Shown here one piece after another: positions 2,218-25,281 of a stretch of 64,000 nt of DNA. Below the pieces are notes generated by a model, which was not told the DNA's origin, made no database searches, and worked only from the letters and a program-made list of their open reading frames with translations. A program made the translations under genes and the position numbers. The stretch lies in sequence record OP795442. One strand, written 5' to 3'. Within the stretch, counting starts at the first letter, position 1, and every line of letters begins with the position of its first letter. Source of the DNA: Escherichia phage A7_1.

Positions 2218-3393
2218 TCAAAACGGAATATCGTCGTCAAAATCCATATCATCTACAGACATATTTACATGTCCTTCAATATCAGGGGTAGGTGAATCTT
2301 CTGCTGACGGAGTTAACTGCGGTTCCGGCTCAGGTTTCTTTTCCTCTTGCTTAGGAGTTGAAGCACCGTTACGGATCTTATCTTCCAATTGACAGATGAA
2401 TCGGAAATTCTCTTCAGTCTTAGCAATAAAGGTTTCGATATTGTCACGACCCCAACGGGCAGAAAGAATGCCACACTGGCCTAAACGAGCACCGAAAGAG
2501 TAATCATCCATAGATTTAAACTCTTCACGCAGTTTTGCTTTGATCGAATCCATCGCTGCAAGAACTTGTTCTACGATCACACCCTGATTTGCAATAGTTT
2601 CATCAGGGAACATTGCATCGGTAATAGACAGTGCATTACCTAAACGAATAGGTAGATCATCTTTACCTTTACCTGAACGTGATCCTGTTCCAGTACTTGC
2701 ACCTTTTGGACCGTAAGCTTTAAAGCCTGTAACCGTACCATCATCTGAACGAACACCTGCAATACGACCACCTTCTGTAATCTGACCCGCCTGTTCATCA
2801 GTGAGGTTTACAGTAACTTCTGTGCCGTCTTCCAGCTTAACAACTACCTTATTGCCTTCAATAGATGTGATATCACCATAAATCTTCTTAGCTGCACCAC
2901 CAGACGGCTTTTGCTGCTGTTGGGAACCACTTGATTGCTGCTGTTTCTGACGAGGCTCACGAGCACCGGATGCGTCAGTAATTTTGATACGTGCTTTCTT
3001 ACCTTCTGTAGAAGAACCTTGACTACCATCTTCTTTGGTATAGGTCTTGATAACAACAGGTAAACGAATTTTCATACCCTCTTTAAGATCAGTGTAACCA
3101 CCTTCAGGATTTTTAATCTGGAACTGATTCTCATACTTCAGGTTTTTAACTTCACCCTCACCAAAAGAAATCCATGCTTGATCTTCACCTTCTTTAAGAA
3201 GAACCGCATAGCGGTGGGTATTGTTAATGCTTTTCTGCTGACCAGTATTCTTGTCTTTGAAGGTAGTCACTCGTGGGCTACCATCTTCATTAATACGTTT
3301 GATCATGATACGTTCAATCGTACCTGCTGCAATGTTTACTGTGGTATCGGAAACAGCATCGTATACAGCATTGATAACTTTAACTTCAGACAT
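2218..3393 (-). CDS. SSB-like DNA-binding protein with acidic C-terminal tail
   Basis: 391 aa ending DMDFDDDIPF, the acidic tail typical of SSB proteins; Gln/Gly/Ser-rich linker; the N-terminal domain is not obviously an OB fold to me. Confidence 0.6.
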   Translation of the reverse strand: MSEVKVINAVYDAVSDTTVNIAAGTIERIMIKRINEDGSPRVTTFKDKNTGQQKSINNTHRYAVLLKEGEDQAWISFGEGEVKNLKYENQFQIKNPEGGYTDLKEGMKIRLPVVIKTYTKEDGSQGSSTEGKKARIKITDASGAREPRQKQQQSSGSQQQQKPSGGAAKKIYGDITSIEGNKVVVKLEDGTEVTVNLTDEQAGQITEGGRIAGVRSDDGTVTGFKAYGPKGASTGTGSRSGKGKDDLPIRLGNALSITDAMFPDETIANQGVIVEQVLAAMDSIKAKLREEFKSMDDYSFGARLGQCGILSARWGRDNIETFIAKTEENFRFICQLEDKIRNGASTPKQEEKKPEPEPQLTPSAEDSPTPDIEGHVNMSVDDMDFDDDIPF

Positions 3394-10751: not shown

Positions 10752-11276
10752 TTAATTGCACAGGATGGTCTTTATAGCTGCATCAACTTCTGGACCTTCC
10801 TTACCGATAAAAGAAGCAAGACCCTTAAGTTTACAGGCTTCATACACTGCCCTAGCTTCTTCTTTTGTCCTGTATCTCCCAATATGTTTTTTGTTGATCT
10901 TGACCCTCCATTTCTGGCGATCTTCTTCCCAAGATATGCCTTTTCTTTTTGTCCAGTAACGATTAAGGTCACCGGAGATAAACAGGCAGGTTTCTGGTGA
11001 ATATACCTTACCGCCTTTTAAATCTTTATCAAGGCACTTCCCCTTCCAATCCTTTGTTTGCATCCACGCTTTGAAATTGCTAAACCTGAGCCACTCTTCA
11101 CAGACGGTAGTCCCCTCATAAGAGGGGTCCCTTGACAAAGCGCCCTGATCGTAACAACGTTGAAGCATACTCATCCATCGCATGTAGAATGGGCACATCT
11201 TTTCGTCTGGCCTAACATTGTAACCTGCGTCGTTTATACCCTTTCCGTAAACCATAAAAAACTCCTTATAAATCAA
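10752..11276 (-). CDS. AP2-like DNA-binding domain protein, homing-endonuclease-related
   Basis: C-terminal ISWEEDRQKWRVKINKKHIGRYRTKEEARAVYEA resembles AP2 domains of phage homing endonucleases; no clear HNH or GIY-YIG catalytic motif seen. Confidence 0.5.
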   Translation of the reverse strand: MIYKEFFMVYGKGINDAGYNVRPDEKMCPFYMRWMSMLQRCYDQGALSRDPSYEGTTVCEEWLRFSNFKAWMQTKDWKGKCLDKDLKGGKVYSPETCLFISGDLNRYWTKRKGISWEEDRQKWRVKINKKHIGRYRTKEEARAVYEACKLKGLASFIGKEGPEVDAAIKTILCN

Positions 11277-11282
11277 TAACTA

Positions 11283-13937
11283 CTAATGGCACGCCCCCCA
11301 GTTCATCCCTGTGAGGTATTCTCCAGTTATCATCACTGGTGATTTCATCATCTTAGCTGCTTGTTCGACACAACGAACAACCATCTCTCCTACAGGGCAG
11401 TATGTAATAGTGAAGATACCATTTTCATCAGGATCACACTTAAACTTCCCTTCTTTCACACAATGACCATCTAAGACCATCTTCTTAGCCAAGCAAGCTT
11501 CTACAAATTTTTTCGCGTCAGCTTCGTTGTCAAAGGTCCAGGTCTTCTTGAACTTGTGTGGCACTTCAAGCTGGTATTCATCATGATAGTAAATGATACG
11601 GCGAACACCTTCATCATACCAACCTTTCTTAACCAACTGCCAGTGCAGGAGGATACCTACCAAGTCAAACAGTGCAGCACCACCATTCTGCTGATAAGCA
11701 TTAAGCAATGAGTGTTTGGAACGAGTGTAGATCTTACGTCCATCAAGACCGTAGATGAATCGCTTACCGTTAGCTTCCCAAAACTTCTCTAGTGCTTCTT
11801 TACGACCTTTCAAGCCGATGTTGCTATCCCAGAATGCGTCGATTACTGCCTGGGCCTTCTCAAGAGTGATCCCCAGCATTGATGCAATCTTCGCTGCCTG
11901 TGCCCCGTACATAATTCCGTATGTCACACCTTTACCTTCACCACGAGAAACCTTCTTCCCTGCCGCTTTGGTATACGCTTCTGCGTTTCGGGAGTGAGCA
12001 TCTCCAGATTCCATGATACGAAGATAAGCGCCACCATCGAAATCATACGCGCCCCATGCCGCGATCATACCTTCCAAGTTTGAACCGTCGATACCTACCT
12101 GATATTTACCCTCGGAGGCTCTAAACAGTTCACGCATCTCTTTACCGAGAAGAACTTTCTCATCCGGCTTAGGTACGTTTGCTACGATCGTATGCTTACG
12201 ACGACCTGTGTTAGTTATTCCACTATAACGGGCCGGAAGTTTACCGTCAACCCGTAGACGTGGATGGTTAAGCCATCCGGTATCAACCTTCTCTTCTTTC
12301 AGTGGGTCAAGAACAGATCGTCGGTTACGTAAAGACAGCCATTTAACAATCTGTTTAGCCATTTCACCATCTACTCGCTCAAGGTTAGGGCAAAGACCCT
12401 GCTGATCCTTAAGTTGTGGAGATGTTGGTAATGCACGGGCTTTCTTCCTGAAGAACTTATACATCTTCTCTTTATCTTGCCACTGCTTACCACTGATACC
12501 TAAACTTTTCAGAATCAGATCGCGATATTCAGTCTGGTCAAGATCATCAATATATTGACGAACAATGATATCGACTTCGTTATCGGGACGTTGTTTCTTA
12601 AACTGGTCCTTCGTCGCATCTTTAGTTCGCCACAATGTTGGGACCCAACCAGCATCACGAATAAGGAATTTTTTAACGTCATCCTGATTACCAATACGCA
12701 TCGGGATCATAATGTCCGGCATCTTTTGTTCTTTGATATCCATCAAAGCACGAGCCATATCTTCCGGCGGCAAAGGAACAAGCCCTTGCTGCTTAACGTT
12801 TTGTGCACGGATAAAATCACCCATTTTGGATTCATCTTCTACACCGTGTTCAACACAATACTTGATCGCGGCGGCAGTAAGAGATCCGTCAGCCTTAAAC
12901 GGCTTACTTGGTGCACCTTTAAACTCTAATGCTTCCCAATTGATATTATAACCTAACTTCTCTAACCATTTCCAACCTGTACCGGAAAGAGATCCATCAC
13001 CCTTGAAAGGCTTAGATGGGAATGTCGGTTGTGCTGATTTCGACATTTCTTTCTTCGGTAACTTAGGTTCAACCTCTAACTCAATGTCTGTCATCATCTT
13101 ATCGATACGATCACGGAGCTTGAGTGCTTTTTCTTCATCAAATGAAACACCCTGAATCTCTTGCTCAATCATCAGGTAGTCGGTCAGCATACCTCGACGC
13201 AGGGCATTCTTCCAGTTGATCATTTTAAACTTCTTCTGATCTTTGTCTGTTTCATCCTTAAACATGAAGCGTTTATCATCTGGCATGGATTCACAAGAGA
13301 TCTCTTTCATCAGAGCATCCCACACCATTTCGTTGATAATTACGTCTTCAATAATACGATCGCAATATTTCCAAAGTGGAAGGCCACGCCAATCTTCAAT
13401 CGCCACTTTCTGGTTGGCTACTCGCATACCCCAAGCTTCAAGCCCGTGAGGGCCTACAGGCTTCATTTTACCTGTGACTGGGTTCTTTACCATCTCGGGA
13501 CAACCACGAGGCAGAGGGCGATCTGGATACAATGTACGGGACATTGAAAGTGTATCGAAGATGTTTACTTGTTTACCATTAATCGTACCCATGCAACCAG
13601 GGTCTGCAAACATATCGTAAGTTGTTCCAAGCATCTTCTTAAACAACTGGAGGTCGTAGCCGAAGATGTTGTGGATAGCAATTGCTTTAGGCTCTGTGAC
13701 AAACCACTCGTTTAATTCCTCAATGGTCCGAATCTTAAAGTTTTTACCTTTAGATTGGATAAATTTAACAGCTTGATCGTAACCTTCCCGCTGGGGATCA
13801 AGAAAGATGTTCCAGTTATCTTTTTTATACTCTTTAAACAAGACGCAGTGAATCAGATCAACCTCTGTCAATAGACCATTCGCTTCCGCATCTCCAATAA
13901 ATAAGCCTTTCATTTTTTCTCCTTCTTCAAGCTCCAA
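11283..13937 (-). CDS. DNA polymerase, family A, with 3'-5' exonuclease domain
   Basis: 884 aa; N-terminal FIGDAEANGL (Exo I D-x-E); motif A DGSNLEGM; motif B R-GEGKGVTYGIMYG; motif C YHDEYQLE. Confidence 0.9.
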   Translation of the reverse strand: MELEEGEKMKGLFIGDAEANGLLTEVDLIHCVLFKEYKKDNWNIFLDPQREGYDQAVKFIQSKGKNFKIRTIEELNEWFVTEPKAIAIHNIFGYDLQLFKKMLGTTYDMFADPGCMGTINGKQVNIFDTLSMSRTLYPDRPLPRGCPEMVKNPVTGKMKPVGPHGLEAWGMRVANQKVAIEDWRGLPLWKYCDRIIEDVIINEMVWDALMKEISCESMPDDKRFMFKDETDKDQKKFKMINWKNALRRGMLTDYLMIEQEIQGVSFDEEKALKLRDRIDKMMTDIELEVEPKLPKKEMSKSAQPTFPSKPFKGDGSLSGTGWKWLEKLGYNINWEALEFKGAPSKPFKADGSLTAAAIKYCVEHGVEDESKMGDFIRAQNVKQQGLVPLPPEDMARALMDIKEQKMPDIMIPMRIGNQDDVKKFLIRDAGWVPTLWRTKDATKDQFKKQRPDNEVDIIVRQYIDDLDQTEYRDLILKSLGISGKQWQDKEKMYKFFRKKARALPTSPQLKDQQGLCPNLERVDGEMAKQIVKWLSLRNRRSVLDPLKEEKVDTGWLNHPRLRVDGKLPARYSGITNTGRRKHTIVANVPKPDEKVLLGKEMRELFRASEGKYQVGIDGSNLEGMIAAWGAYDFDGGAYLRIMESGDAHSRNAEAYTKAAGKKVSRGEGKGVTYGIMYGAQAAKIASMLGITLEKAQAVIDAFWDSNIGLKGRKEALEKFWEANGKRFIYGLDGRKIYTRSKHSLLNAYQQNGGAALFDLVGILLHWQLVKKGWYDEGVRRIIYYHDEYQLEVPHKFKKTWTFDNEADAKKFVEACLAKKMVLDGHCVKEGKFKCDPDENGIFTITYCPVGEMVVRCVEQAAKMMKSPVMITGEYLTGMNWGACH

Positions 13938-14312: not shown

Positions 14313-14596
14313 CAGTATTTTTCCTCTGGACGGAAAACTCCACGGCAAGCCCACATACTTGCTTCTTTGAGGCGATCTTTAGCCTTAGATAAGCAATCAG
14401 ATGCAAAAAGCACGGAATCTAGATCCCCTTCGGGAATCGAAGAGTCATTAGCCAGTCGATTATATTCCTCAATAATCTCGTCTTCTAATGCTTTTAAAAT
14501 AAGACCTAAACGAATTTCAGCATCTTTAATGGCATTCACCTTACCGATTTTTTCATCGGTGTGTGGTTTGTAGCCCTTAATGTCATCAATAGCCAT
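14312..14596 (-). CDS. hypothetical protein
   Basis: Track ORF, 94 aa. Confidence 0.45.
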   Translation of the reverse strand: MAIDDIKGYKPHTDEKIGKVNAIKDAEIRLGLILKALEDEIIEEYNRLANDSSIPEGDLDSVLFASDCLSKAKDRLKEASMWACRGVFRPEEKY

Positions 14597-15090
14597 TACC
14601 AGTCCTCCTCTGTTTGTTCATACTCTGAAGGGGTGATGAAGTAATTCTGACCCCGCTTGCACTGGTTGAAAGTCCCAACATACCAAGTACCGATATCCAT
14701 GTTGATGAAAGTTTCTTCTTGAACAAAGATCAGATCAGCAAGATTATTGTCTGATCGTTGGGTCGCTAACAAAATATGCTCAAAATCTGCCAACGTCATG
14801 TTATAAGAGAAACCATCTTCGTCCTCCATAACCGCAACAACAGAACTGCGCCCCTGAGTGAATTGACGAAACTGTAAACGTAAATGACGATGCTCATGTT
14901 CATTCGTCTTTACCTTTTTCCGATTTTCAAAGTATTCTTCGGAATAATACGGATGCTTTAACTTTAGCTTTTCAATCTCTTCTAAAGAAAGAGCGTCCTT
15001 GTCCCAACCAGTGAACCATTTACCGTTATGATCAAATACCGCAGGGTATTTACGCTTACTTAAATCTTTAAACATCATAATCCTCCCCAT
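14596..15090 (-). CDS. hypothetical protein
   Basis: Track ORF, 164 aa. Confidence 0.5.
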   Translation of the reverse strand: MGRIMMFKDLSKRKYPAVFDHNGKWFTGWDKDALSLEEIEKLKLKHPYYSEEYFENRKKVKTNEHEHRHLRLQFRQFTQGRSSVVAVMEDEDGFSYNMTLADFEHILLATQRSDNNLADLIFVQEETFINMDIGTWYVGTFNQCKRGQNYFITPSEYEQTEEDW

Positions 15091-17956: not shown

Positions 17957-18207
17957 AAACCATACCTCGCTTCATATAAGAATTCATCAAGATCTTTACT
18001 GTCGTCGGAACCTTCTACTGTCAACGGCATCAGGTGTTCTTTGAAATAATAGCAAAGATTGCCGGAACTCGTTTCCACTAAACATGTGGTTTTGCAAACC
18101 ATCTTAACTTTCACCGATAGTCCCGCATCTTCATGGCTGTGGACCATTGCAAGACAACCATCATAAAGCTTATCCTCGTAAGGTAAGCAAGGATCTGGAT
18201 TTTTCAT
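17953..18207 (-). CDS. hypothetical protein
   Basis: Track ORF, 84 aa. Confidence 0.45.
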   Translation of the reverse strand: MKNPDPCLPYEDKLYDGCLAMVHSHEDAGLSVKVKMVCKTTCLVETSSGNLCYYFKEHLMPLTVEGSDDSKDLDEFLYEARYGL

Positions 18208-18500
18208 CGTGAACTTTCCTCCTCCGCATGTTTACGCACCCATTCTACACGGGACGCGTTCAGGTGTTTGTTATCGTCGTAGTGATACGCTTTCCAACCT
18301 TCGTCGAAAGGGAACTCCCAGTTCAGTCCGGCATCGGTAAACTGTTGCTGCATCTCTTTGAGTAACTTATAGTCACACTCTGAAAACTCTTCCAGTGCGT
18401 TACACAGACCGCAGGTCCGATCAAACGTCTCGGAGTGTGGTGCACCAGCGTCAAGCCACTCAGCATAGGCTTTATAGAATGCTTTAAGTTGCTCGCTCAT
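18204..18500 (-). CDS. hypothetical protein (paralogue of 8123..8449)
   Basis: 98 aa; shared motifs with 8123..8449. Confidence 0.5.
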   Translation of the reverse strand: MSEQLKAFYKAYAEWLDAGAPHSETFDRTCGLCNALEEFSECDYKLLKEMQQQFTDAGLNWEFPFDEGWKAYHYDDNKHLNASRVEWVRKHAEEESSR

Positions 18501-18896
18501 TTATTTATCCTCTGCATATGCAATCTTAGTCATGTAGTCAATACAATCATATTGAACATTGTGGCTATTAAAAACAGCCTTGTCTTTGTAAATAACTTGC
18601 CAATAATCAATGCTTTCAATTTCGGAAAGGTATGCAACACACTCCCCTTTTGGATTAATAAGTTCAACTCGATCAGTTTCTCGTAATTTCCAACCAGTAG
18701 GTAACTGAACAGCTTGTTCCTTAAAAATCACAATATCGTCACGGTGACCAGTTGCCCTTTTAAATGCCCGCAGTAATTCTTTGTATTCACGATATTTCAC
18801 ATAAAGGCCGTCCTCTGATTTTTCCATACGGGCTTCATTGATATTGCAATTACCATCCATATCTCCAACCAGGTCGTAACGATATACAGGTTTCAT
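18501..18896 (-). CDS. hypothetical protein
   Basis: Track ORF, 131 aa. Confidence 0.5.
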   Translation of the reverse strand: MKPVYRYDLVGDMDGNCNINEARMEKSEDGLYVKYREYKELLRAFKRATGHRDDIVIFKEQAVQLPTGWKLRETDRVELINPKGECVAYLSEIESIDYWQVIYKDKAVFNSHNVQYDCIDYMTKIAYAEDK

Positions 18897-19105
18897 TTTT
18901 TAACTTTCTCCTTTTTCTCAGGTTTTACATCGCAAACTTTTTGTTGATAACTGATCGGTGTTACATAGCGCCACGTCTTTTTAAGGTTCTCAACGAGGAT
19001 TCGCATTTGTTCCTCATCAGCACCCCAGCCTGCGGTATGTGCTATTTCATCAACACTCATCTGGCATTTAACGTACCATCTTGTAATTGTCTTCGATTGT
19101 ATCAT
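18893..19105 (-). CDS. hypothetical protein
   Basis: Track ORF, 70 aa. Confidence 0.45.
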   Translation of the reverse strand: MIQSKTITRWYVKCQMSVDEIAHTAGWGADEEQMRILVENLKKTWRYVTPISYQQKVCDVKPEKKEKVKK

Positions 19106-19132
19106 TATCGTTTCCTTAAGGTCAAGAGATTT

Positions 19133-19429
19133 TTATTTAATACCTAATTCTTTTGCACTGTAAATATCATTACCTTCATAGCCTTTGTAGTAGATCAGGA
19201 TATCTTTGACAATCTCTCCCGTCGGTCCGCTCCGGCGAGTACGTGGTCGCTGTGCATTGACCAAATAAACTTCACCACGAGTATTTATTTTTGTTGTACG
19301 ATGGCCTTCGACAAAGGTCAAAGTTGTATATGCAGGAACCTTAACAAGAACTTCTACCTGGTCACCAGCAGTATTCTGTTGTTCATTTGCCATATCGTCT
19401 TTAACAACAGTCGTCATAAGTTTGGTCAT
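19133..19429 (-). CDS. hypothetical protein
   Basis: Track ORF, 98 aa. Confidence 0.5.
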   Translation of the reverse strand: MTKLMTTVVKDDMANEQQNTAGDQVEVLVKVPAYTTLTFVEGHRTTKINTRGEVYLVNAQRPRTRRSGPTGEIVKDILIYYKGYEGNDIYSAKELGIK

Positions 19430-19431
19430 TT

Positions 19432-19695
19432 TTATTCTCCTTTGTTCAATGTGGATACGAATTCGATATAAGATTCTGCATTTCGTTTATGATAAATCTG
19501 AGGATAGCTGTCGGTTACTTTGCCGTATTTGATGTATCGCTCAAGCATACCGACAACACCACCAATGGAATGCACAACAACGCCTTCTTCACCGACAAAG
19601 GTAACCACTTCTACGAATGGACTGTTATCATAAGAACGATTTACAATCAGATCGCCGACTTCAAATTCGATTTTATCATTTTGTGAGTAGTGCAT
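19432..19695 (-). CDS. hypothetical protein
   Basis: Track ORF, 87 aa. Confidence 0.5.
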   Translation of the reverse strand: MHYSQNDKIEFEVGDLIVNRSYDNSPFVEVVTFVGEEGVVVHSIGGVVGMLERYIKYGKVTDSYPQIYHKRNAESYIEFVSTLNKGE

Positions 19696-19792: not shown

Positions 19793-20902
19793 TCAGAAAG
19801 GTGCTTCGTCGTCGAAATCTACATCTTCAACTTCCGGTACATCAGGAATGTCACCTGCGGATTCAACGATACTCTGTTGTTCCCACGTAGGTTCCTCTGA
19901 AGGTTGGTCCATTTCTTCCATAACCTTCTTGATCTCTTCCTCTTGCTCACGTAGGAAGTTATCATCCGGCTCAGGAATATCTTCCTCTTTAATATCTGAA
20001 CGAGTGAGATCACTGTTTTGTTCAGACAAAGGTTGAATCTCTGCGGCCTTAGGTTTGAAATCTGGAGAACGATGATCATCTTCTGGATGAGCGGCATACC
20101 ACTCACGAAGAGTTTCATAAGGACTCTCTAGGAAGCCCTCTGGCGGTTCCAGATAATCACCTGTATCAATGTCATAGAACACAGGGAATTTACCAGCACG
20201 ACCGTGTTTACGGTCATCCAGGATAACAAAGTAAGAAGTGTTACGTTGTTTCATCGGAAGCTCTGGATCTTTGTTACGTTCAATACCCCACATATAGTAA
20301 GTGTTTCGCATCATTGCACGGCTACCAGCAAACTGCGCCGACTGGACTTGACCACCAAATTCATGAGGCTTACCAGATTCAGGCTTGTTAAGGTGACAGA
20401 AGCAATAATAAGTAAAGCCAAGCTCTTTTGCCAGTTTGGAGATCTCATCCGAGAATCGTTCCAGTTCCTGGTTAGCTTCAGAAGCACTCATACCTTGCAC
20501 AAGACGAGTGATCGGGTCAATAAAGATATCTTCACAACCTTCTACGATCACTGCGTGACGGATAGCACCTTTCAGTTCATCCCATACTGCACGACCATAG
20601 TTGTTATAATAGATAACACTATCACCAACTTCATCAGTAGCTTTGATCAGTTCTTCTTGCTTAAAGTAGCCACGTTGACCTTCAAATACTTCATTACCCC
20701 AAATGTCACGGAAAGTTCCATCTTCTTGAGGAATCATTACCTTTTCTGCGTTAACAAAGTCTTTATGATAACGCTTACCTGCGATCTTCTTACAAGTGAT
20801 CTCGTTCTCTTCTTCAAACTTAAACACCGCAGCTTTTGACTTCTCAATACCCGTGATGTGTTCAACCATTTGGTTAAGAAGTTCAGACTTGCCCATTTTC
20901 AC
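19793..20902 (-). CDS. replicative helicase domain (T7 gp4-like), 3' exon of split primase-helicase
   Basis: Begins (V/M)KMGKSELL, the second half of a Walker A box; RecA-like core; ends with acidic tail DVDFDDEAPF. Confidence 0.8.
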   Translation of the reverse strand: MKMGKSELLNQMVEHITGIEKSKAAVFKFEEENEITCKKIAGKRYHKDFVNAEKVMIPQEDGTFRDIWGNEVFEGQRGYFKQEELIKATDEVGDSVIYYNNYGRAVWDELKGAIRHAVIVEGCEDIFIDPITRLVQGMSASEANQELERFSDEISKLAKELGFTYYCFCHLNKPESGKPHEFGGQVQSAQFAGSRAMMRNTYYMWGIERNKDPELPMKQRNTSYFVILDDRKHGRAGKFPVFYDIDTGDYLEPPEGFLESPYETLREWYAAHPEDDHRSPDFKPKAAEIQPLSEQNSDLTRSDIKEEDIPEPDDNFLREQEEEIKKVMEEMDQPSEEPTWEQQSIVESAGDIPDVPEVEDVDFDDEAPF

Positions 20903-21643
20903 CGTTATGTTCGACAGGGTTCGCTACTCCCTGCCCGTTCTCTTACGAACTGCTACATGTCCCCATGCAGACCAGACTATATCTTCAACCTGTTTCCAGG
21001 TGCTATGCACTTCGGACCGCTTGGTCCTACTCTACTCGATTCAAGAGTCTAGCTCTTGTCTTTCGATAGTCGTTGCTCCTTCCTCTCAACCGCTTTGTAA
21101 TTTGTCTTACGGTATCTCTGTGTATCCCAAAATGCTCTGCAATTTCTTTTTGTTGAAGCGTGGTATTAATAACCATTTCGTAAACCTGCTTCTCAAAATC
21201 ATCAGCATATCTATTTGGATTTCTTCTACCGTTGGCCCAACCATGATCGACATTTTCTTTCGTGGTTGTCCATTCCAAATTAACATCGTTGTTGTTTTGC
21301 CTGTCGCTATCTTTATGATTAACAACAGGAAGGTTATGAGGGTTATCAACGTAGTGTTCAGCCACCAATTGGTGAATAAATCTACGTGTAACCTTACCAT
21401 CTTTACTTAACGAAACTCTAAGATACCCTGAACTATTGGTATCCGGTTTGAGTTTTTTAAGCTTCCGGTAAACATCTCCCCTTCGGGTAATGATGTAATT
21501 TTCAAAACCTTTTATTCTTTTCATTTCCCCCTCCTTGCAATAAACAAAGAGGTTGAGAGGCTTGGATCAGGATTACGTGTTCTACGCTTCCCCTGAGTTC
21601 ACATAGTATTTAGTCGAGGCATCTCTGCCAAGGCTGGCTAGAC
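20903..21643 (-). mobile_element. intervening sequence in primase-helicase gene, candidate group I intron with HNH homing endonuclease ORF
   Basis: About 740 nt between primase stop and helicase start; contains an independent ORF with its own SD; approximate boundaries. Confidence 0.6.
21027..21524 (-). CDS. HNH-family homing endonuclease (intron-encoded candidate)
   Basis: 165 aa; N-terminal GFENYIITRRGDVY (NUMOD4-like), HNH-type core, basic C-terminal DNA-binding tail; AAGGAGGGGG SD. Confidence 0.8.
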   Translation of the reverse strand: MKRIKGFENYIITRRGDVYRKLKKLKPDTNSSGYLRVSLSKDGKVTRRFIHQLVAEHYVDNPHNLPVVNHKDSDRQNNNDVNLEWTTTKENVDHGWANGRRNPNRYADDFEKQVYEMVINTTLQQKEIAEHFGIHRDTVRQITKRLRGRSNDYRKTRARLLNRVE

Positions 21644-22588
21644 TTAATGTTTACCAGCACCGATGAAGTAACCTTCACCTGGACGACGACCCAAGGTAAG
21701 CTTGGTCATGGTGGGCCAAGGGAACTTCTTGCCGAGTTTAGGGATCTCATGTGCCTTTTCGCGGAACTGTGAATAAGTCGAGAAACCATCCGGCACATAT
21801 TCCTTTGGCTTCATTGCAGCCCAAAACAACTGATCAGAAAGTCCTTTGTTATACATGTCGCAAGGGTCCATATCTTCTGGAATGTCCACGACCTTCATTT
21901 GTGGAATTACAGAGTATACCGCTGCAACTGCATCTTTACCTTTCATGATCCCTTTGGCCTTCTCTGCTTCTGTCGCACGGTCAGCATCGAAAGCTACGAT
22001 AATCTCTTCAAACTTACTCAGAAGCTTATAGTTATTCTTCTGTGATAAGTTTTGCACGGCATTGGATGTACCGTTAGAGATAGATACAACTGTGAAGTTT
22101 GGTTTACGAGTGGAACCATCCTTCGGTTTGTACTTCTCTGTCAATACCTGCCACAAGATTGCAGCATCGTATTCACCTTCAGTGATAAAGATCATACGTT
22201 TGGAAGACTTGTTTGCACCTTCCAGACCAAACATATCACAGGCTACAGATTGGAAACCGATAGTTGTAAAGTGCCCTTTCTGTTGCTTAGGGATCGTAAG
22301 ATCACGCTTTTTAAAACCTACAACCTTACCTTCCAATGTGTACGGAAAATAATGTGCTTCTGGAGTCATACCGTCTTTAGCTGACAACTTGGTACGAATA
22401 CCAAATCGTTTAGCTGTCTTTTCGTCGATACCACGCTCAGGGATACTTTTACACGGGTAAGTCAATACATCTTCAACTGTTTCTTCCACACGAGACACAC
22501 CACCACCATAATTACGTGCTACTGAAGCTTTAGGATTTTTATGTCCGAACTTATAACCGCCAAACAAACTTTCGCCAATAGTGCTCAT
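21644..22588 (-). CDS. DNA primase (TOPRIM) domain, 5' exon of split primase-helicase
   Basis: 314 aa; TOPRIM motifs IFITEGEYDA and VAFDADRA; ends GEGYFIGAGKH-stop, the first half of a Walker A box. Confidence 0.8.
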   Translation of the reverse strand: MSTIGESLFGGYKFGHKNPKASVARNYGGGVSRVEETVEDVLTYPCKSIPERGIDEKTAKRFGIRTKLSAKDGMTPEAHYFPYTLEGKVVGFKKRDLTIPKQQKGHFTTIGFQSVACDMFGLEGANKSSKRMIFITEGEYDAAILWQVLTEKYKPKDGSTRKPNFTVVSISNGTSNAVQNLSQKNNYKLLSKFEEIIVAFDADRATEAEKAKGIMKGKDAVAAVYSVIPQMKVVDIPEDMDPCDMYNKGLSDQLFWAAMKPKEYVPDGFSTYSQFREKAHEIPKLGKKFPWPTMTKLTLGRRPGEGYFIGAGKH

Positions 22589-23922: not shown

Positions 23923-25281
23923 TTATTGATCCTTGAAGATACTGGGGAACTTCTCGTGATAGAAGTTTACAACATCTTGGTCAACAATGATATCTTTTAC
24001 TCGTAAGCGTTTCAAAAGGCGAAGACCTTCTACACTCGTGGCACGGGAGAGCATAACATATGCTTGACCAGGTGTGAAAGTACCAAAGCCGAGATCGATG
24101 TTTACCTTACCTAAAGTTAAACCTTGTGCCTTGTGACCAGTGATCGCATAGCCCAACTTGAATGGGTATTGAATGTATTCACCAATAGATTTATCAACAA
24201 GAACAGTCTTTTCAACCATCTTCTTGATCATCTTTTTAGTCCCGTCCGGCATATCAACCTCTTCCTCTTCAAGCATCATCTTTTTCTCAGGTACTTGAGC
24301 AACGTTGTTCCATGTTGCAGGACCAATTGGGACCATCTTGCCATCGATATCTACAACAACAAAGGTTTTTGCGATACGACGCACAATACCGACTGTACCA
24401 TTGACATAATCAGGAACTTTCTTCTTCTGATCATTGTCGTTAACAACGATCATTACTTTAAGACCTTCTTTGAGAAAGAGCTTTTCGTTAACTGGACGTT
24501 CAACAAACTCACCAGTAATACGAGCATTAAATTCATGCTGTTCAGCATTAATCTTTGCGTATTCTTTGTTGTTGATCTCTTCTGCCAGCTTGTTCGTGGT
24601 AGTTAAAGTTACTGCTCCATCAAGTGGACGACCAAAGCAACGCTGATTAAAGAAGTTAACAGCATCGGGGATGTTCTTCCCGATACGGATATTATTAAGG
24701 TGTTCTGCAAACACAGGATCACTTTGACGATGCACTTTGGGAAGATAGGCATAGGTCAAATTCAAGGATTCCCAACTTTCACAACCAAAAGGAATTTCCT
24801 TGCCATGTAGCTCACGGAACAGGGGAACTTCTTCTTTCTTAAGAACAGGCTTGATCTGGAAACCATCGCCAAACATGATGATCTGGAGTCCACCAAAAGG
24901 CTTATCGGATTTACGATGATGGCGAAGTTTCATATCGATTTCCTTCAGTTTGTCACTTCGAGTCATACCGATCTCATCAAACACGATACCATCCAGTGCA
25001 TCAGATGCCATAAGCATAGCTGCCTTTTTAGATTTTGCCTTATAATCCTCGGAAGTTGTGACACCAAAGGTTAAACCAAACGCCTTGTGAGCCGTAACAC
25101 CACGGATGTTTAATGATGCTACACCTGTAGGACCAACAAACAGAAAACTATCGGCAAAGAAGTCACGCAATGCAGCGATCATCATACTTTTACCACTACC
25201 ACCAGGTCCGGTGATAAAAACGTTTTCACCATTCATGATTGCCTGCATCGCTGCTTCGTTACCGATCACTGTCTTAGTCAT
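23923..25281 (-). CDS. SF1B helicase, Dda/RecD/Pif1-like
   Basis: 452 aa; Walker A ITGPGGSGKS; C-terminal AITGHKAQGLT (RecD-like motif). Confidence 0.85.
   Translation of the reverse strand: MTKTVIGNEAAMQAIMNGENVFITGPGGSGKSMMIAALRDFFADSFLFVGPTGVASLNIRGVTAHKAFGLTFGVTTSEDYKAKSKKAAMLMASDALDGIVFDEIGMTRSDKLKEIDMKLRHHRKSDKPFGGLQIIMFGDGFQIKPVLKKEEVPLFRELHGKEIPFGCESWESLNLTYAYLPKVHRQSDPVFAEHLNNIRIGKNIPDAVNFFNQRCFGRPLDGAVTLTTTNKLAEEINNKEYAKINAEQHEFNARITGEFVERPVNEKLFLKEGLKVMIVVNDNDQKKKVPDYVNGTVGIVRRIAKTFVVVDIDGKMVPIGPATWNNVAQVPEKKMMLEEEEVDMPDGTKKMIKKMVEKTVLVDKSIGEYIQYPFKLGYAITGHKAQGLTLGKVNIDLGFGTFTPGQAYVMLSRATSVEGLRLLKRLRVKDIIVDQDVVNFYHEKFPSIFKDQ

Follow-up and report, generated by a model that had tools for sequence, protein, structure and literature searches.

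Acidic SSB-Ct-like tails on an SSB-like protein and on the primase-helicase of an rV5-like Escherichia phage

The replication region of Escherichia phage A7_1 raises the question of why two of its proteins, an SSB-like protein and a helicase, end in nearly the same acidic peptide, and whether the two peptides serve to dock their owners on one component of the replisome. The original prediction for the stretch of DNA analysed here (64 kb, hereafter the window) was that both proteins carry the same acidic D-F-D-D-x-x-P-F tail and that, as with the tails of T7 gp2.5 and gp4, which bind the polymerase, both might dock on one shared partner in the replisome. The likeness itself is borne out by the two ORF ends. 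The SSB-like ORF terminates in VDDMDFDDDIPF, that is, in DMDFDDDIPF followed by TGA, and the ORF at 19793..20902 (minus strand) terminates in VEDVDFDDEAPF, that is, in DVDFDDEAPF with TGA at 19793-19795 as its stop codon. When the entire window was scanned in all six frames for DF[DE][DE]..PF or [DE][DE][DE].PF, just these two sites came up, both of which directly precede a stop codon. The chance expectation for a C-terminal DFDD[DE]xPF, computed from the amino acid composition of the window ORFs, is 1.6e-6 over 679 ORFs, and this figure, together with the exactly C-terminal position of both motifs, rules out chance or a compositional artefact. The DNA encoding the tails is identical at 24 of 33 nt and differs at synonymous sites (TTT/TTC, CCG/CCT), so the likeness is held at the protein level rather than being the product of a recent DNA duplication; recent gene conversion between the two tails is ruled out by the same synonymous differences. 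The SSB-like end, DDDIPF with a free carboxylate, agrees with the SSB-Ct consensus D-D-D-[IVL]-P-F, which the helicase end, DDEAPF, fits loosely, P-F and the acidic run being kept and Ile being replaced by Ala.

The first 24 kb of the window share 96% nucleotide identity with Escherichia phage A5-4, a Vequintavirinae (rV5-like) myovirus of ~145 kb belonging to a clade that has been named 'Septuagintavirus' (PMC11370258). This region holds a replication module with a polymerase, a primase-helicase, a Pif1/Dda-like helicase and several HNH genes (Table 1); a polymerase, a primase-helicase, a ligase, a second helicase and an exonuclease are all phage-encoded. The order primase-helicase, polymerase, SSB-like gene, all on one strand, is kept in the Vequintavirinae, in phi92 and in distant metagenomic relatives.

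Table 1. Positions of the features discussed, in the window unless a locus (L number) is given
Feature	Position	Strand	Basis or remark
SSB-like protein gene, 391 aa, phrog_4477	2218..3393	(-)	ORF call; TGA at 2218-2220
Tail MDFDDDIPF of SSB-like protein	2221..2247	(-)	Identical to E. coli SSB acidic tip (SSB-Ct, residues 169-177)
Disordered acidic Pro-rich linker carrying the tip, residues 342-382	2248..2370	(-)	
Four-helix bundle domain, residues 247-341	2371..2655	(-)	pLDDT above 90
Small beta domain, SH3-like, residues 169-227	2713..2889	(-)	AF2 strands
N-terminal OB-fold domain, residues 7-140, presumed ssDNA-binding module	2974..3375	(-)	
Family A DNA polymerase, 884 aa, candidate shared docking partner	11283..13937	(-)	Pfam DNA_pol_A
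Primase-helicase exon 2, helicase domain, acidic linker and tail	19793..20899	(-)	phrog_239 positions 368-657; DnaB_C match
Helicase tail DVDFDDEAPF, degenerate SSB-Ct-like tip (Ile to Ala at -3)	19796..19825	(-)	
Acidic linker before helicase tail, roughly 95 residues	19826..20110	(-)	Composition
Putative group I intron, 753 nt, inside Walker A codons	20900..21652	(-)	Weak RF00028 match and HNH ORF
HNH endonuclease ORF within the putative intron	21027-21524		HNH domains
Primase-helicase exon 1, Toprim primase part	21653..22588	(-)	phrog_239 positions 101-366 (ORF 21644-22588); weak Toprim matches
Pif1/Dda-like helicase	23923-25281		
phi92 (Stephanstirmvirinae) locus with conserved gene order	L014:12352-20072		
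Metagenomic contigs with conserved gene order	L016 and L017		
GAP31 proteins with extension after the tip	L002:5001-7067 and 18192-19442		
BIS47 proteins with extension	L003:6414-7757 and L006:2201-4276		
PVP-SE1 protein with extension	L008:19986-21230		
rV5 protein with extension	L015:9982-11274		
phi92 gp156 with extension	L014:19125-20072		
HK75 SSB with extension	L009:2569-3075		

The 391 aa protein matches an Escherichia phage A7_1 protein at 100% identity and belongs to a family, phrog_4477, of 'unknown function'; its homologues, drawn from 117 matching phage records, are labelled 'hypothetical protein' in the listed matches that overlap a single annotated gene. The name 'SSB-like' given to it in the original prediction is appropriate to the predicted fold and not to the sequence family. 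In an AlphaFold2 model (m715344f26a26, mean pLDDT 76) the protein is predicted to contain an OB fold of the nucleic-acid-binding type, and a Foldseek search against viral models returned its own family first and then many phage 'single-stranded DNA-binding proteins', aligned over 135-160 columns. The Pfam SSB family PF00436, on the other hand, gave no match to the protein at E <= 0.01, and the sole SSB signal in the sequence was a weak phmmer match to the OB domain of the HK75 SSB (E 0.005, 546 ORFs searched). Beyond the OB fold lie a small beta domain, which has a weak Pfam match to the SH3-like Myosin_N family under the cut-off and is apparently missing, as judged by eye from the sequence, in the shorter phi92 gp156 (315 aa), and a four-helix bundle, which is conserved more widely in the family than any other folded module and gave no informative fold match when searched alone. 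As in a bacterial-type SSB, the protein then continues into a disordered linker (disordered at residues 345-383 of the model, with pLDDT below 50 at 345-368) and an acidic tip ending in Pro-Phe, residues 342-391 having a net charge of -11 and containing eight Pro. A phmmer search of the window and of the remainder of A5-4 found no canonical SSB, none is annotated, and none is listed in the genome papers on rV5 and on Septuagintavirus (the latter PMC11370258). On the grounds of predicted fold, architecture and gene context, the 391 aa protein is most likely the phage's own non-canonical SSB.

The original prediction overlooked that the last nine residues of this protein, MDFDDDIPF, are identical at all nine positions (9/9) to the acidic tip of E. 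coli SSB, residues 169-177. That tip recruits at least 17 SSB-interacting proteins, and Pro and Phe are the most conserved residues of the SSB-Ct (PMC10018359); in its recognition the Phe side chain occupies a hydrophobic pocket, the alpha-carboxylate is held by a basic residue and Asp lies on a basic ridge (PMC3159472). The identity makes the host SSB-interacting proteins an equally obvious class of partner. The resemblance to E. coli SSB extends to the disordered linker after the OB-fold domain and to the free C-terminal Phe, whereas the two extra domains and the missing PF00436 match set the phage protein apart; unlike in the bacterial SSB system, moreover, a related tip is also borne by a protein that is not an SSB, the primase-helicase.

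Conservation of the tip among SSB-like homologues is high. D-F-D-[DE]-D-[IV]-P-F is kept in about 80 of 97 homologues; the short tip forms the C-terminal end in 80 of the 97, down to ~30% identity, and in roughly another 15 the tip is followed by an extension. Counted over the 80 short-tail homologues, positions -8 to -1 are occupied by D (79), F, W or Y (80), D (78), D or E (73), D (78), I or V (80), P (80) and F (79). A profile search of 1.84 billion representatives brought the family to 207 relatives, counted as representatives at 50% identity, many of which are ~280 aa long; common to them are the helical bundle and the tail alone. An acidic run plus [IVL]PF ends about 100 of the 140 newly retrieved remote representatives, and ten of these remote proteins, when tested, were all Pfam-negative at the gathering score (10/10), with phrog_4477 as the sole match. 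The tip is near-invariant across phages of Escherichia, Salmonella, Klebsiella, Cronobacter, Pectobacterium, Serratia and Erwinia. Judged from these alignments, purifying selection acts strongly on the SSB-like tail.

The designation of the second protein as a helicase is correct for its domain, but the ORF concerned is just the second exon of what appears to be an intron-interrupted, gp4-like primase-helicase. The family phrog_239, 'DNA primase/helicase', matches both exons (E about 1e-75), and the Pfam matches to Toprim and DnaB_C are weak. Joining position 21653 to 20899 would yield an in-frame protein of 680 aa with the Walker A motif GAGKMGKS, and the joined Walker A region aligns without gaps with rV5 gp225; the spliced product would combine a Toprim primase with a DnaB/gp4d-type helicase domain. 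U ends exon 1 and G ends the intron at the proposed splice boundaries, and the match to RF00028 is full-length and weak (24.9 bits, E 6e-4, below the gathering score). The same gene is annotated in PVP-SE1 as a join of two pieces that flank an HNH gene, and an intron-like element is present at the same locus in A5-4. The last 105 residues of the primase-helicase, which fall outside the conserved part of phrog_239, contain 35 D+E, 9 K+R and 11 P and have a net charge of -26, a composition that points to a disordered linker. Among 120 gp4-like homologues, 90 end in Phe and just 16 in Pro-Phe, so an aromatic end is characteristic of the family and the SSB-Ct-like form of particular lineages; the helicase tip is conserved within the Vequintavirinae only. 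A literature search on SSB-Ct mimicry by phage helicases found nothing relevant.

The ends of the two proteins were compared in pairs across relatives (Table 2). The paired tails were taken from annotated phage records, and the loci were scanned with the motif pattern, except for the metagenomic contigs L016 and L017, whose genes were read one by one. Wherever the pattern was applied, the motif was confined to the SSB-like gene and the helicase gene. The acidic Phe tail is absent from the helicases of phi92 and L017, and this comparison of sequences indicates that the SSB-like tip is near-universal and the helicase tip is a Vequintavirinae-specific addition. Position -3 is I or V in all SSB-like tails and A, C or T in all helicase tails, a constant difference which suggests that the two tails are tuned differently. 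In 5 of 7 Vequintavirinae genomes both proteins have the same form of tail, short or extended; the 7 genomes amount to about five clades, the window and A5-4 being close relatives and GAP31 and PVP-SE1 belonging to one genus.

Table 2. C-terminal ends of the SSB-like protein and the helicase in the window and in relatives (the last residue given precedes the stop codon)
Source	SSB-like protein	Helicase
Window	DMDFDDDIPF	DVDFDDEAPF
A5-4	DMDFDDDIPF	DDWDDDAPF
CR3	VDFDDDIPF	EMDDDCPF
PVP-SE1	MDFDDDIPF-APIGLQYGRNFIHCI	DMDEDTPF
rV5	DFCDDIPF-APVGLQYGKSRIHAL	FEDDETPF
GAP31	MDFDDDIPF-APIGLPYGRNFIHCI	DFDNDTPF-APIGLQYANHAIYAL
BIS47	MDFDDDIPF-APIGLPYGRNFIHCI	PDDDTPF-APIGLQYAKHAIYVI
phi92	DFDDDIPF-APIGLQYGRNFLHCF	ENISAGSY (no tail)
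Metagenomic L016	EFDDDIPW	QEFEEF (T7-style ending)
Metagenomic L017	MDFDDDIPF	RSLASK (no tail)

The extension that follows the tip in some relatives comprises ~15 residues of the form AP[IV]GL[QP]Yxx[HN][AF]I[YH]x[LI] and is conserved on three unrelated scaffolds, namely the SSB-like family, Vequintavirinae primase-helicases and the canonical SSBs of lambdoid and Vibrio phages. The HK75 SSB, for example, ends in PPMDFDDDIPFAPVTLPFPRHAIHAI, the tip and then the extension. In a tblastn search at E <= 10 the tip with its extension had matches in 239 phage records, 145 of which cover at least 80% of the peptide, and a literature search found no paper containing the extension peptides. The SSBs of the lambdoid phages HK75, mEp235 and g341c resemble the 391 aa protein in being phage proteins with DFDDDIPF, and the same optional 15-residue extension is present in them and in relatives of the phage analysed here; they are close homologues of E. 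coli SSB, however, whereas the 391 aa protein belongs to the separate, unannotated family phrog_4477. The HK75 SSB starts MASRGVNKVI and, judged by eye, tracks E. coli SSB through the OB domain. Since the extension buries the terminal carboxylate needed by canonical SSB-Ct pockets, it should abolish canonical SSB-Ct binding. A link between the extension and the overlapping endonuclease gene found downstream in GAP31 and rV5 was considered and rejected, PVP-SE1 and BIS47 being without such a gene.

The closest solved structure to the phage polymerase is T7 gp5 (E 7.7e-16, against about 1e-9 for Taq). The gp2.5 tail of T7 anchors on a front basic patch of gp5 formed by K587, K589, R590 and R591, alongside K594 and R599, and a gp4-tail peptide, DTDF, has been modelled at the same patch in PDB 6P7E (PMC12339929); the terminal Phe of gp2.5 is described as essential (Ghosh et al., 2009, as cited in PMC12339929). 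The phmmer alignment sets WEANG------KRFIYGLDGR of the phage against WVAGEQQVKWKRRWIKGLDGR of T7, with K-R opposite R590/R591, R opposite R599, and K587 and K589 in the six-residue deletion. The patch is partly conserved, and the alignment is compatible with a T7-like tail site. As in T7, an SSB is paired with a gp4-type primase-helicase, both with an acidic stretch and a terminal Phe, and, the polymerase here being of family A and nearest to gp5, the idea of two replisome proteins converging on one docking site would match. Suppressors of a T7 gp2.5 without its terminal Phe have been found in the polymerase gene. The T7 analogy of the original prediction can be retained in part: the helicase is gp4-like (phrog_239) and the polymerase is nearest to T7 gp5, but the basic patch is incompletely preserved and the two tails are not equivalent, since the SSB-like tail is near-invariant and the helicase tail is lineage-specific with A, C or T at -3.

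We hypothesize that both tails act as docking peptides of the SSB-Ct type, each consisting of an acidic run, x-Pro-Phe and a free carboxylate and each displayed on a long disordered acidic linker. The OB fold of the 391 aa protein would bind single-stranded DNA and leave the host-identical tip exposed on its linker, while the primase-helicase, expected to be ring-shaped and presumably a hexamer as in T7 gp4, would carry the degenerate tip on its acidic linker of roughly 95 residues. The terminal Phe of each tail would enter a hydrophobic pocket beside basic residues on the partner, and the single-stranded DNA coat and the helicase would in this way be tethered to one and the same part of the replisome. 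If gp2.5 and gp4 are taken as the model, this common partner would most likely be the T7-like family A polymerase of the phage, which is our first choice because it is T7-like and because the phage brings its own replisome. The tip of the SSB-like protein would very likely engage host SSB-interacting proteins as well, because of its complete identity to the host tip. The assignment of the tails to the SSB-Ct/T7 type of docking peptide has good support in their position, their conservation, the disorder of the linkers, the protein families and the gene context. A partner common to both tails is plausible in view of the T7 precedent and the partial co-variation of the two tails, and this part of the reading is weakened by the constant difference at -3 and by the lineages whose helicase has no tail. 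The motifs with their positions and conservation, the predicted folds and the gene context are results of the analysis; from them we infer single-stranded DNA binding, docking and the identity of the partner, and we consider the reading as a whole, with SSB-Ct-type docking tails, a non-canonical SSB and the polymerase as the likeliest common partner, to be probable on balance, if not strongly so.

A tip that is invariant and copies that of the host exactly speaks for an engagement of host SSB-interacting proteins as well, or even for these as the main target. In the latter case both tails would mainly engage proteins such as chi of Pol III, PriA, RNase HI, ExoI, RecQ and RecO, either recruiting useful host enzymes to phage forks or serving as decoys that draw them off the host chromosome, and the phage polymerase would not be the principal partner. 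Such mimicry would explain why the SSB-like tail matches in all nine residues a tip that recruits at least 17 host proteins (PMC10018359) and why it is as invariant across hosts as the bacterial SSB tip, as expected from many fixed partners; it is also in keeping with the canonical SSBs of lambdoid phages, such as HK75, that have the same tip sequence, although in HK75 the extension follows it. A phage equipped with the replication proteins listed above may, however, have little need for host replisome parts, the helicase tail does not follow the host consensus (A, C or T in place of I, and variable acidic positions), and in many relatives the 15-residue extension buries the carboxylate that canonical partners require (PMC3159472). 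We regard host proteins as a possible main target, though a less likely one than the polymerase.

Docking on the polymerase, which we prefer, has also to be set against functions of the tails that involve no partner at all. The acidic tail might fold onto the DNA-binding surface of its own protein, compete with single-stranded DNA and so tune affinity and turnover, much as the DNA-binding domains of E. coli SSB can be occupied by its own acidic tips in competition with DNA (PMC10018359) and as the C-terminus of T7 gp2.5 lies in that protein's own positive binding groove in an AlphaFold2 model cited in PMC12339929. The strongly acidic character of both linkers is in accord with this, but charge shielding needs neither a strict x-P-F-COOH end nor a near-invariant I-P-F, and the AF2 models contain no confident fold-back of the tail, the tail pLDDT being about 50-67. 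In E. coli SSB and T7 gp2.5, furthermore, self-regulation coexists with partner docking, which makes it an addition to docking rather than a replacement; by analogy, self-inhibition of DNA binding probably coexists with docking here, and we think it quite improbable as the explanation of the tails in its own right. That the two tails have no shared function, being due to chance, to acidic low-complexity composition or to a leftover of recent recombination between the two genes, is suggested by the frequency of acidic tails among replication proteins and by the many endings that the helicase family tolerates. The low chance expectation, the exactly C-terminal position of both motifs, the synonymous differences, which exclude a recent copy, and the retention of the motif in both families across several genera make this extremely unlikely.

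What is new here is that acidic, Phe-terminated replisome tails, a known design, are written in the host SSB's own code on an unannotated SSB-like family. If the docking reading is true, the T7 principle of SSB and helicase tails that share one docking site on the polymerase extends to a large group of ~140-kb myoviruses, and the SSB tip of the host itself can serve as a shared docking code; the widespread 'hypothetical' family phrog_4477 would gain a testable function, and the missing-SSB gap in the annotation of rV5-like phages would be filled. The extension offers a route into how phages modulate the SSB interaction hub. One may speculate further, tentatively and with rather little confidence, that the Vequintavirinae replisome is built around the host SSB interaction code. 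The tip would then be a portable address label placed on the non-canonical SSB, on the primase-helicase and, in this clade, on the protein A54_138 described below, which would let phage proteins connect to the host SSB interactome, compete for it or disable it, and the extension would be a modular cap that masks the carboxylate, so that the tip is off until processed or is redirected to a phage-specific receptor.

Other proteins of these phages were also noted for their C-terminal ends. Outside the window, A54_138 of A5-4 (L011:7429-7980, minus strand; 183 aa, phrog_12009, unknown function) ends in KFIVDEDIPF. Its SSB-Ct-like hexapeptide end is limited to five close E. coli relatives, and it looks like a recent acquisition, since the CR3 and POP15 homologues end differently. 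Within the window, the ORF at 14596-15090 (minus strand), near the polymerase, encodes a protein of 164 aa (phrog_7983, unknown function) with an acidic run and a terminal Trp (YEQTEEDW). It was dropped as a candidate for a third tail, its CR3 homologue ending in FIEPVEVD, and the end is probably not a conserved docking tail.

The polymerase gene itself differs between very close relatives. In the window a single ORF of 884 aa is followed directly downstream by an HNH endonuclease ORF at 10752-11276 (the two together spanning 10752-13937, minus strand), whereas the A5-4 polymerase (L001:11142-14567) is annotated, despite the 96% identity, as three pieces with an extra ORF between them, which indicates that the content of mobile endonucleases or introns varies even at this short distance.
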